9,461 nucleotides of DNA from Escherichia coli. Lineage in GTDB: Bacteria > Pseudomonadota > Gammaproteobacteria > Enterobacterales > Enterobacteriaceae. Positions 1-3,000 of this stretch are shown here, piece by piece. Numbering within the stretch: position 1 is the first letter of the stretch; each line of letters starts with the position of its first letter. The position numbers are program-made. The stretch is taken from the NCBI RefSeq assembly GCF_003334355.1, contig NZ_QOWP01000059.1. One strand, written 5' to 3'.

Positions 1-3000
1 CTAATTTTTCAGGACGTATTGCAACGATCCAGTCTGGTACTTTGATACCGTAAAATCTGGAGCGTCCATCTCATTATTCCTGTAAAACGCGCCCTCAGCC
101 CACATCCATGTGGGCTGCCCCGGCCTACAGGAAACGATTCGGCGATTTACAGCCGGACCCACACCCCCGCTGTGATGTCCATGTACCACAGACATCGCTT
201 CATTGCTGAAGTTATAAGGCGTTACGCAGCATTGGGTAAAATGGCCGATACCATCACACCTCGTACTCCATCTCGCCATCCTTATGCAGCGGAATAATCT
301 GCACCTTCTGCACGCGATGGCTTTCCACCTGCAACGTTTTGAGCAAGTAATCCCCTACCTGAACTTCTTCGCCAGGTTTTGGAATACGCTGCAAATATTC
401 CATCAATAGCCCGGCAATGGTGTGATATTCACGTTTTTCATCCAGCGGCAGCGGCACATATTGCACCAGATCTTCCAGCGGCATATGACCATTCGCCGTC
501 CAGGAACCGTCCGCATTTTTCTGAATATCATGGCGGGCGTCGATCTCTTCCACTTCGTTCGGTAAGTTACCGGCAATGGTTTCAGTGACGTCACTTAATG
601 TCACAATCCCTTCCACCGAGCCAAACTCATCCACTACAAAAGCAAAGTGCGTGCGGGCATTACGGAACTGCTCCAGGGCAGGTAACAACGGCAAGGTTTC
701 CGGGAACACCAGCGGCTGGCGAATCAACACCCGCAGGTTGAGCGGTTCGCCGCGCAGAGACTGTTGTAGCAGGTCGATAACGTGAACAACACCGAGCAAA
801 TCTTCTGCGTCATCACCGTCGGTAACCACCAACCGCGTATGCTGATTTCGCTCCAGCAACTGGCGGATTTCTTCTTCCGGCGCGTTGAGATCGATATGCT
901 CAATATCGTGGCGCGACGTCATAATGCTGCTGACAGTACGCTGGTTAAGATTAAGTACCCGCTCAATCATCCGCCGTTCCTGCGGATTAAAGATCTGCTG
1001 GTTACCATGATCCACCAGCATGGACGCGGTTTCGGCGTCCAGTTCCGCATCTTCTTTTTGCCCGCTAAGCAGGCGCATTACCGCTTCGGTAGTCCGCTGG
1101 CGCAGCGTCTGGTTAGCGGAAAGAAAACGTCGCCGGTTAAAGATAGCCAACTGATTGAGCGCCTCGATCATCACCGAGAAACCAATGGCAGCGTACAGGT
1201 AGCCTTTCGGAATGACGAAGCCGAAACCTTCTGCCACCAGGCTAAAGCCAATCATCAACAGGAAGCTTAAGCAGAGAATAACGATCGTCGGGTGACTGTT
1301 AACAAATTGCGTTAACGGCTTGCTGGCCATCAACATCAGGCTAATAGCGATAACGACGGCGGCCATCATGACCAGTAAATGGTCGACCATCCCGACGGCG
1401 GTAATCACCGAGTCGAGTGAGAAGATGGCGTCCAGTACCACAATTTGTGTCACCACCCCCCAGAACTTCGCACCTTTGCGTTGCGTGGGGTTATTGCTGT
1501 CTTTCCCTTCCAGCCGTTCGTTCAGCTCCATCGTGGCTTTGAACAACAGGAAGAAACCACCAAACAGCATGATTAGGTCGCGGGCGCTAAAGGTAAACGA
1601 GCGAAAGCTGAATAGCGGTTGTGTCAGGGTGACCAGCCAGGAGATTGACGCCAGCAGTAACAGGCGCATTAACATCGCCAGCAGCAGCCCGGTAACCCGT
1701 GCGCGGTCGCGCTGCTTCGGCGGTAGTTTTTCGGCGAGGATGGCAATAAAGACCAGGTTATCAATGCCGAGGACCAGTTCGATCACAATCAGCGTGATTA
1801 ACCCGGCCCAGATAGACGGATCGGCAATCCATTCCATAGTAAGTACAAAACCTATTCGTTGTATGACAAATGTCACAATTCGATCATGGATAAATCGGGG
1901 CAAAAATGCAATGTTGCAGCACTATTTATCTCATATTATTTGAGGTTTATAACCTCACATTATCCCTGAATTAAAAGTGGTAATAATAAGACATTATTTA
2001 AGAAATATCGCATGTGGAGACACTATATTAAATATTGTCAACCTAAAGAAACTCCTAAAAACCATATTGAATGACACTTAATATAATTCTTAAAAATAGC
2101 CAATTGCCGAATTGTTACCTTGCCTGCTATTCCGTTAGCTGTAACACTTCCTCCTGCATTATTGGAGAGCCAATATTCAATTACCATAATGTCACCTTAT
2201 ATTCGGAAGTTAATTTCCGCAATAACCCTTTCTCATCAACGACTGTATGTTGAGAGGGTTTTAAAAATTAAGCTAAATCAGTGTATTGGTAGCTAAAAAG
2301 CCAGGGGCGGTAGCGTGTCTGGATGCCTGAAAGACCAGTCTGAATTGTTCTGTCAATAGCCTGCGGATGAAATCAATTTTTTTAGGACTGATGCCAGTTA
2401 AATTTTTATTCAATTAACTGCAAGGTAAATGTGCATGGCGACATTGCTATTAATAGTGCACAGGATAATTACTCAGCCAAAGTGATAAATAAACAATGAT
2501 GAAATCCAAAATGAAATTGATGCCATTATTGGTATCAGTAACCTTGATAAGCGGTTGCACAGTACTTCCGGGCAGCAATATGTCGACGATGGGTAAAGAC
2601 GTCATCAAACAGCAGGACGCTGATTTCGATCTCGACAAAATGGTGAATGTTTATCCGTTGACCCCGCGCCTGATTGATCAATTACGTCCACGCCCGAATG
2701 TAGCGCGCCCCAATATGCCCCTGGAAAGTGAGATCGCGAATTACCAGTATCGCGTCGGGCCGGGGGACGTTCTTAATGTCACCGTCTGGGATCACCCGGA
2801 ACTCACCACGCCAGCCGGTCAGTACCGCAGCTCCAGCGACACCGGCAACTGGGTACAGCCTGACGGCACCATGTTCTACCCGTATATCGGCAAAGTTCAC
2901 GTGGTGGGGAAAACGCTCGCTTAAATCCGCAGTGATATTACCGGGCGCTTAGCGACGTACATCGCTGACCCGCAGGTGGACGTTAATATCGCCGCCTTCC

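Follow-up and report, generated by a model that had tools for sequence, protein, structure and literature searches.

Promoter and leader motifs of the colanic acid operon persist ahead of a recently inactivated wza-wca gene cluster in Escherichia coli

Background

What should be made of an operon whose regulatory leader looks intact when the genes behind it are broken? The question is raised by a 9,461-nucleotide stretch of Escherichia coli DNA (contig NZ_QOWP01000059.1 of assembly GCF_003334355.1; the whole stretch is called the window here), which as a whole is the colanic acid (cps/wca) locus. An initial annotation of the window had proposed that the leader between yegH and the divergent gene wza is intact although the structural genes are dead, that the operon may still be transcribed under Rcs/RfaH control, and that decay has acted on the coding sequence. 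The answer we favor, with a probability of roughly 0.7, is that we are looking at the canonical promoter and leader of cps (wza-wca) in a lineage that lost its colanic acid operon recently and stepwise, and that the regulatory motifs persist by neutral inertia. The system is known, and its evolutionary state is ordinary.

Results and Discussion

Regulatory elements between yegH and wza

The start codon of yegH (- strand) ends at position 1837 and the ATG of wza lies at 2496, so that the intergenic region spans 1838-2495; coordinates are those of the window, and the features discussed lie on its + strand, that of wza, unless stated otherwise. With a length of 658 bp and a GC content of 34.7% (vs. 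51-54% in the flanking genes), the region is indeed the AT-rich divergent spacer that the initial annotation had described. The closest known system is the cps promoter and leader of E. coli K-12 (Stout 1996; Wehland & Bernhard 2000), the same locus with the same 658-bp length and 97.9% identity. The two sequences differ by 14 substitutions and no indels, and none of the differences falls in any recognized motif: the RcsAB box, the conserved promoter block and the 39-nt JUMPstart/ops element are all identical. The window differs from K-12 in that two of the 14 substitutions sit at cross-genus invariant positions (2347 and 2475) and that the downstream operon is pseudogenized. The control region of the colanic acid operon found here is already well known.

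To place conserved elements on this region, species-representative genomes were scanned with K-12 Wza, which yielded 80 loci across the Enterobacteriaceae; in 77 of these, yegH and wza are again divergent. Conservation values given below are averages, over the 74 loci from other genera in the intergenic alignment, of identity to the base in the window. The whole intergenic region (1838-2495) scores 0.58, and the alignment resolves into sharply bounded conserved blocks within a poorly conserved background.

The RcsAB box of the wza promoter, TAAAGAAACTCCTA, occupies 2044-2057. It is identical to K-12 and an exact match to the E. coli/Shigella wza box that Fang et al. 2015 list in their Table S1 with reference to Wehland & Bernhard 2000 and Stout 1996 (PMC4381331), its conservation is 0.80, and its right half-site, TCCTA, is present in 65/74 other-genus loci. 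Judged by this sequence identity, 2044-2057 is the RcsAB operator of wza. Against the consensus TaAGaatatTCctA the box matches at 10 of 14 positions, missing the conserved G at position 4 and keeping the five 3' bases TCCTA exactly; a search of the window for the consensus with up to three mismatches returned no match. A conserved TTGTCAAC block (2035-2042; conservation 0.87) stands directly upstream of the box.

The initial annotation had been unable to place the RcsAB box and had offered two weaker candidates. Both strings are found where it put them, and neither equals the published box. The published sequence places the box instead at 2044-2057, and the alignment with K-12 that the annotation had suggested as a check reveals no substitution that would destroy it. 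The first candidate, site A (TAAGAAATATCGCA, 1999-2012; conservation 0.73), matches the consensus at 9/14 positions, among them all invariant positions of the pattern T.AG.....TC..A, and Atlantibacter carries TGAGGATATTCCTA at this place. Site A is the only occurrence of that pattern in the window, which is not above chance. The second candidate, site C (TAATATAATTCTTA, 2079-2092; conservation 0.85), matches the consensus at 10/14 positions, and its right half, TCTTA, is present in 72/74 loci. Sites A and C share the same orientation and have RcsB-type right halves (TCGCA and TCTTA, respectively), and they may be auxiliary RcsAB sites.

A single RcsA-RcsB-activated promoter has been described upstream of the operon (PMC4443731; PMC2478693). 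The alignment contains a conserved block at 2119-2155 in which we recognize a putative core promoter (2120-2148) with a -35 hexamer TTGCCT (2120-2125; conservation 0.98), a 17-bp spacer, and a TGn motif followed by the -10 hexamer AACACT (2140-2148; conservation 0.79), the latter reading AACAAT in most other genera. This block is probably a weak, activator-dependent sigma-70 promoter with a transcription start site (TSS) near 2155. Such a start would put the center of the RcsAB box (2050.5) about 105 bp upstream, near -105, and site C near -70.

A less likely placement of the promoter is an E. coli-specific TTGGAG-17-CATAAT sequence at 2162-2190, with a TSS at ~2197 and the center of the RcsAB box ~146 bp upstream. 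It is the only match of a sigma-70 consensus scan and is nearer to consensus than TTGCCT/AACACT, but a single site is fewer than the 3.5 expected in shuffled sequences, and activator-dependent promoters typically have weak hexamers. Furthermore, the stretch is poorly conserved (0.35 vs. 0.98 for TTGCCT), for which reason we disfavor it as the main promoter; in K-12 its -35 reads TTGGAA.

Downstream of the block at 2119-2155 a variable spacer (2156-2278; conservation 0.32) leads to the JUMPstart element at 2279-2317, which is identical to K-12 and matches Rfam model RF01707 over its full length (57.3 bits against a gathering threshold of 35; E = 2e-12). It comprises the ~39-nt JUMPstart consensus with its hairpin, the pairs of which are kept in 43/43 aligned leaders, and its 3' end is the 12-nt operon polarity suppressor (ops) sequence GGCGGTAGCGTG at 2306-2317. 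This 12-mer agrees exactly with ops (GGCGGTAGnnTG) and is on the non-template (coding) strand. The window has a single copy of it (0.07 expected by chance), which lies downstream of both candidate promoters with their inferred start sites and upstream of wza. The exact ops/JUMPstart match reported at 2306-2317 by the initial annotation is therefore confirmed and lies within a full JUMPstart element. Conservation of ops is 0.94, and in nearly all genera ~190 nt separate the ops core from the wza ATG. In strain CFT073, chromatin immunoprecipitation gave an RfaH signal at the ops of the wza leader (PMC9765446). The window resembles other RfaH-ops operons (rfa, rfb/wzx, hly, kps, tra) in its exact 12-nt ops on the non-template strand, its long 5' leader and its JUMPstart hairpin, but its ops precedes pseudogenes, so any anti-termination would be without capsule output.

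Departures from this arrangement were seen in a few loci. In Pseudescherichia vulneris and relatives (L037, L038 and L041) the yegH-wza region is shortened to 475 bp and has no ops core, and a Citrobacter sp. (L007) lacks the exact ops core. One locus (L047) has ~118 additional bases between ops and wza, and another (L012) carries a second GGCGGTAG in the distal intergenic part. In many E. coli genomes the Prokaryotic Genome Annotation Pipeline (PGAP) places a 49-aa hypothetical protein (WP_162829205.1) at 2038-2187 on the - strand, where it would cover both the RcsAB box and the promoter. It is probably an artifact, as 56 of 71 loci have no open reading frame of at least 40 aa there.

Stepwise inactivation of the operon

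Relative to intact orthologs, the operon behind this region carries several inactivating lesions. By our own translation wza (2496-3635) is a pseudogene interrupted by two stops, one at codon 143 (2922-2924, where GAA has become TAA) and one at codon 352 (3549-3551), both of which are common to O111 enterohemorrhagic E. coli (EHEC). A stop at codon 71 (4297-4299) interrupts wzc (4087-6249) and is specific to the sub-lineage of the window, wzc being intact in O111 strains. The pseudogene wcaC (7652-8868) has a frameshift that is common to O111, and of wcaD only a truncated 5' part remains (8843-9281), cut by IS1, whose left end occupies 9282-9461. PGAP annotation of close genomes shows the same lesions, namely internal stops in wza and wzc, a frameshift in wcaC and an IS1-truncated wcaD. 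By contrast, wzb (3641-4090), wcaA (6322-7164) and wcaB (7167-7652) are intact open reading frames. The initial statement that the structural genes are dead consequently holds for the pathway, owing to the lesions in wza, wzc, wcaC and wcaD, but not for these three genes.

Comparison among genomes indicates the order of events. The wza stops and the wcaC frameshift are present in O111:H- 11128, EPSSH018 and O111:H11 88.0502, in which wzc and wcaD are intact, while only the sub-lineage of the window has the wzc stop, the deletion at IS1 and, beside yegH, an insertion of the IS110 family. The operon was thus inactivated recently and in steps. The colanic acid locus of O111 EHEC (e.g., O111:H- 11128) represents the same dead haplotype, with both wza stops, the wcaC frameshift and a G at position 2347, and its intergenic region differs from that of the window at 1 of 658 bases. 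To this haplotype, in which wzc and wcaD are kept intact, the window lineage has added the wzc stop, the IS1-associated wcaD-wcaM deletion, the IS110-family insertion and a private T2475A substitution.

The dead haplotype is common to O111 EHEC and to an avian/porcine/human E. coli lineage, and it has moved by recombination as well as decayed in steps. In two O111:H11 strains recombination has joined an ordinary leader to the dead haplotype, with a breakpoint near 2600 that separates the former (upstream) from the latter (downstream). In one of them, 88.0502 (L087), the breakpoint lies at the equivalent of ~2594-2658 of the window, inside the 5' end of wza, and the yegH/leader haplotype upstream is unrelated. 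From this breakpoint it appears that transfer of the dead cps genes accompanied that of a neighboring region, presumably the one for the O111 O antigen.

Several details of the operon deserve mention. Its cps haplotype represents a divergent allele rather than one like that of K-12: the protein of the wzc allele is only ~87% identical to K-12 Wzc, and wzb, whose product has 149 aa (147 in K-12), shares 4 nt with the start of wzc. The IS1-linked deletion extends to wcaM in the closest genomes, removing the sequence from wcaD' through wcaM'. The IS1 junction varies across the three closest genomes, GPEC1352 having 39 bp less and PSS-12 113 bp more than the window, which suggests repeated IS1-mediated adjacent deletions.

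Persistence of the regulatory motifs

We then asked what the intact motifs can say about function. The window and O111:H- differ by 11 substitutions over 6,746 bp of the dead haplotype (0.16%), and at one base of the 658-bp intergenic region. At this divergence the recognized motifs, ~110 bp in all, would be expected to have received ~0.18 substitutions, and the probability of finding none is ~0.84. Intact motifs are therefore what neutral inertia predicts and provide no evidence of maintenance. Nor do they provide evidence that decay has acted preferentially on the coding sequence, as the initial annotation had inferred, since the coding sequence is a target dozens of times larger; with so few motif hits expected, that inference is unsupported. 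Young pseudogenes will by default have an intact promoter before them, and such a promoter should not be taken as a sign that function continues. The significance of these observations is mainly one of annotation, in that the RcsAB box, the promoter block and the JUMPstart element are now fixed on this sequence.

Selection might nevertheless keep the leader, because it drives wzb, wcaA and wcaB, because it shares sequence with the yegH promoter, or because it acts as a binding sink for RcsAB, H-NS or RfaH. We consider this very unlikely. It is true that every genome examined with the dead haplotype keeps wzb, wcaA and wcaB as open reading frames, but these genes are short (450, 843 and 486 bp, respectively) and could have escaped hits by chance. 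Similarly, yegH is intact, with its own conserved block at 1866-1914, but the cps elements are 160-480 bp away from yegH. The divergence, with its 0.18 expected hits, is too low to separate selection from drift, and the derived changes at conserved leader positions, discussed below, argue against strong constraint.

A canonical leader that persists by inertia may still be active, and continued Rcs/RfaH-dependent transcription of the operon is plausible from the sequence. The published RcsAB box at 2044-2057, flanked by the box-like sites at 1999-2012 and 2079-2092, would act upstream of a weak activator-dependent sigma-70 promoter (2120-2148) initiating near 2155. Initiation at the wza promoter of CFT073 is silenced by H-NS in rich medium (PMC9765446), and the fragment studied here would probably still initiate once RcsA-RcsB is active and H-NS silencing is relieved. 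After a variable spacer of ~125 nt from the TSS to JUMPstart, RfaH would be recruited, loading onto the elongation complex paused at JUMPstart/ops (2279-2317). Polymerase modified by RfaH would tend to read through the untranslated stretch past the wza stop, so that wzb, wcaA and wcaB might be expressed; the resulting transcript would be unable to make capsule.

Substitutions at conserved leader positions

The leader between ops and wza is 178 nt long and contains three blocks whose conservation across the Enterobacteriaceae is very strong and of minor specialist interest. The first (ATT[A>G]TTCTGTCAATAGCCTG, 2344-2363; the leader blocks range from 0.80 to 0.93) carries the derived substitution A2347G, the second (TTTTTAGGACTGATGCCAGTTA, 2379-2400) has a conservation of 0.93, and the third (2459-2495; conservation 0.90) runs up to the wza ATG and carries T2475A. 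These blocks could conceivably form an undescribed post-initiation control element of colanic acid expression, an idea we hold only tentatively. Such an element may be a protein, small RNA or ribosome-loading site acting after RfaH recruitment; if it exists, its release from constraint in the dead lineage would first become visible in A2347G and T2475A.

Twelve of the 14 differences from K-12 fall in variable columns. Of those 12, 11 are common to the O158:H23 strain CFIAFB20140388, which has a fully intact operon, and they are hence ordinary polymorphism. The lineage-specific changes, A1990G, A2347G and T2475A, all lie outside recognized motifs. At 2347 the window has G where 96% of other-genus loci have A, and at 2475 it has A where 99% have T. 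The leader can accordingly be called intact, as in the initial annotation, in that every recognized element is identical to K-12, but not in that it has derived bases at these two nearly invariant positions.

The distribution of these substitutions was determined by exact 61-mer matching among 4,819 E. coli genomes containing the region. The 61-mer with 2347G was exact in 61 of them and that with the stop at wza codon 143 in 63; among the genomes listed (O111 EHEC and the avian/porcine/human lineage) the two sets coincide except for the two O111:H11 strains. The 61-mer with 2475A was exact in a single genome, an O158:H23 strain with an intact operon, and the nearest relatives of the window have T. 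Thus, T2475A, essentially confined to the window, is a private change, a homoplasic one or a sequencing error.

Could the leader already be damaged, with A2347G and/or T2475A disrupting a post-initiation control element, such that decay of regulation is under way or even came before that of the coding sequence? We regard this as unlikely, although somewhat less so than maintenance by selection. Besides the near invariance of both positions, it would fit with the confinement of 2347G to the 61 genomes, all of which have the wza stop, and with a predicted 4-bp hairpin in which T2475A breaks an A-U pair. In addition, two of the three lineage-specific changes fall in columns that are at least 90% conserved, as against zero of the 11 polymorphisms that the window has in common with strains whose operon is intact, a contrast (Fisher p = 0.033) that involves tiny numbers. 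On the other hand, no covariation supports an RNA structure at the leader blocks, O158:H23 has 2475A together with a fully intact operon, and the order of A2347G and the wza stop is not resolved by the O111:H11 strains, which were ruled out for this purpose because they are recombinant near 2600. The changes at ultra-conserved positions do fit the beginning of relaxed constraint in the leader, albeit as a faint signal.

The structural searches bear on the same point. RNAalifold applied to the leader returned only the JUMPstart hairpin and small hairpins without compensatory changes, and for a CAGTTA/TAACTG helix and the hairpin hit by T2475A covariation was no higher than in shuffled alignments. 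In most genera the distance between the conserved blocks TTTTTAGGACTGATGCCAGTTA and ATTAACTGCA (2379-2422) does not vary, and an insertion in Franconibacter is exactly 3 nt. Neither a hairpin nor an upstream open reading frame is a convincing explanation of this spacing. The candidate frame, of 8 codons (MPVKFLFN; ATG at 2392, TAA ending at 2418), was rejected since in 21 of 72 leaders its start is ATA, ATT or GTG or the block is not recognized, whereas the neighboring bases are conserved.

The reading of a canonical leader persisting by neutral inertia thus has several points weighing against it. Either A2347G or T2475A could already impair the leader, and the Fisher test that bears on these changes rests on three substitutions, one of which is the 2475A also found with the intact operon of O158:H23. 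The TSS at ~2155 rests on conservation, and the only promoter found by consensus scan is elsewhere (2162-2190). Finally, the rcsA, rcsB and rfaH genes of the source genome lie outside the window.

Flanking sequences and nearest genomes

The whole window is matched at 99.9-100% by the complete E. coli genomes GPEC1352, E5, EA13 and PSS-12 and by others, from chicken, pig and human. The gene yegH (254-1837, - strand), divergent from wza, encodes a TerC-family membrane protein and is intact; its translation is 100% identical to WP_001366304.1 of the GPEC1352 annotation. The conserved block that adjoins it (1866-1914; mean identity to other genera 0.74 vs. 0.58 for the whole intergenic region) is probably the yegH promoter or 5' untranslated region and would lie outside cps control. 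Of the ~24 differences between the window and O111:H-, 11 are located at 244-1576 in yegH, mostly in its 3' part, and the YegH protein of the window lineage is identical to that of O158:H23. Together, this cluster and the protein identity suggest a further recombination tract.

Past the 3' end of yegH, positions 1-230 have no match in O111 or in most E. coli, whose match to the window begins at 153 or 231. An Rfam search of the window, this end included, found nothing besides JUMPstart. In GPEC1352 and PSS-12 the sequence corresponding to 1-230 abuts an IS110-family coding sequence annotated as an 'RNA-guided transposase', so that the left edge of the window is the non-coding end of this IS110-family element, the place where a bridge RNA would be encoded.

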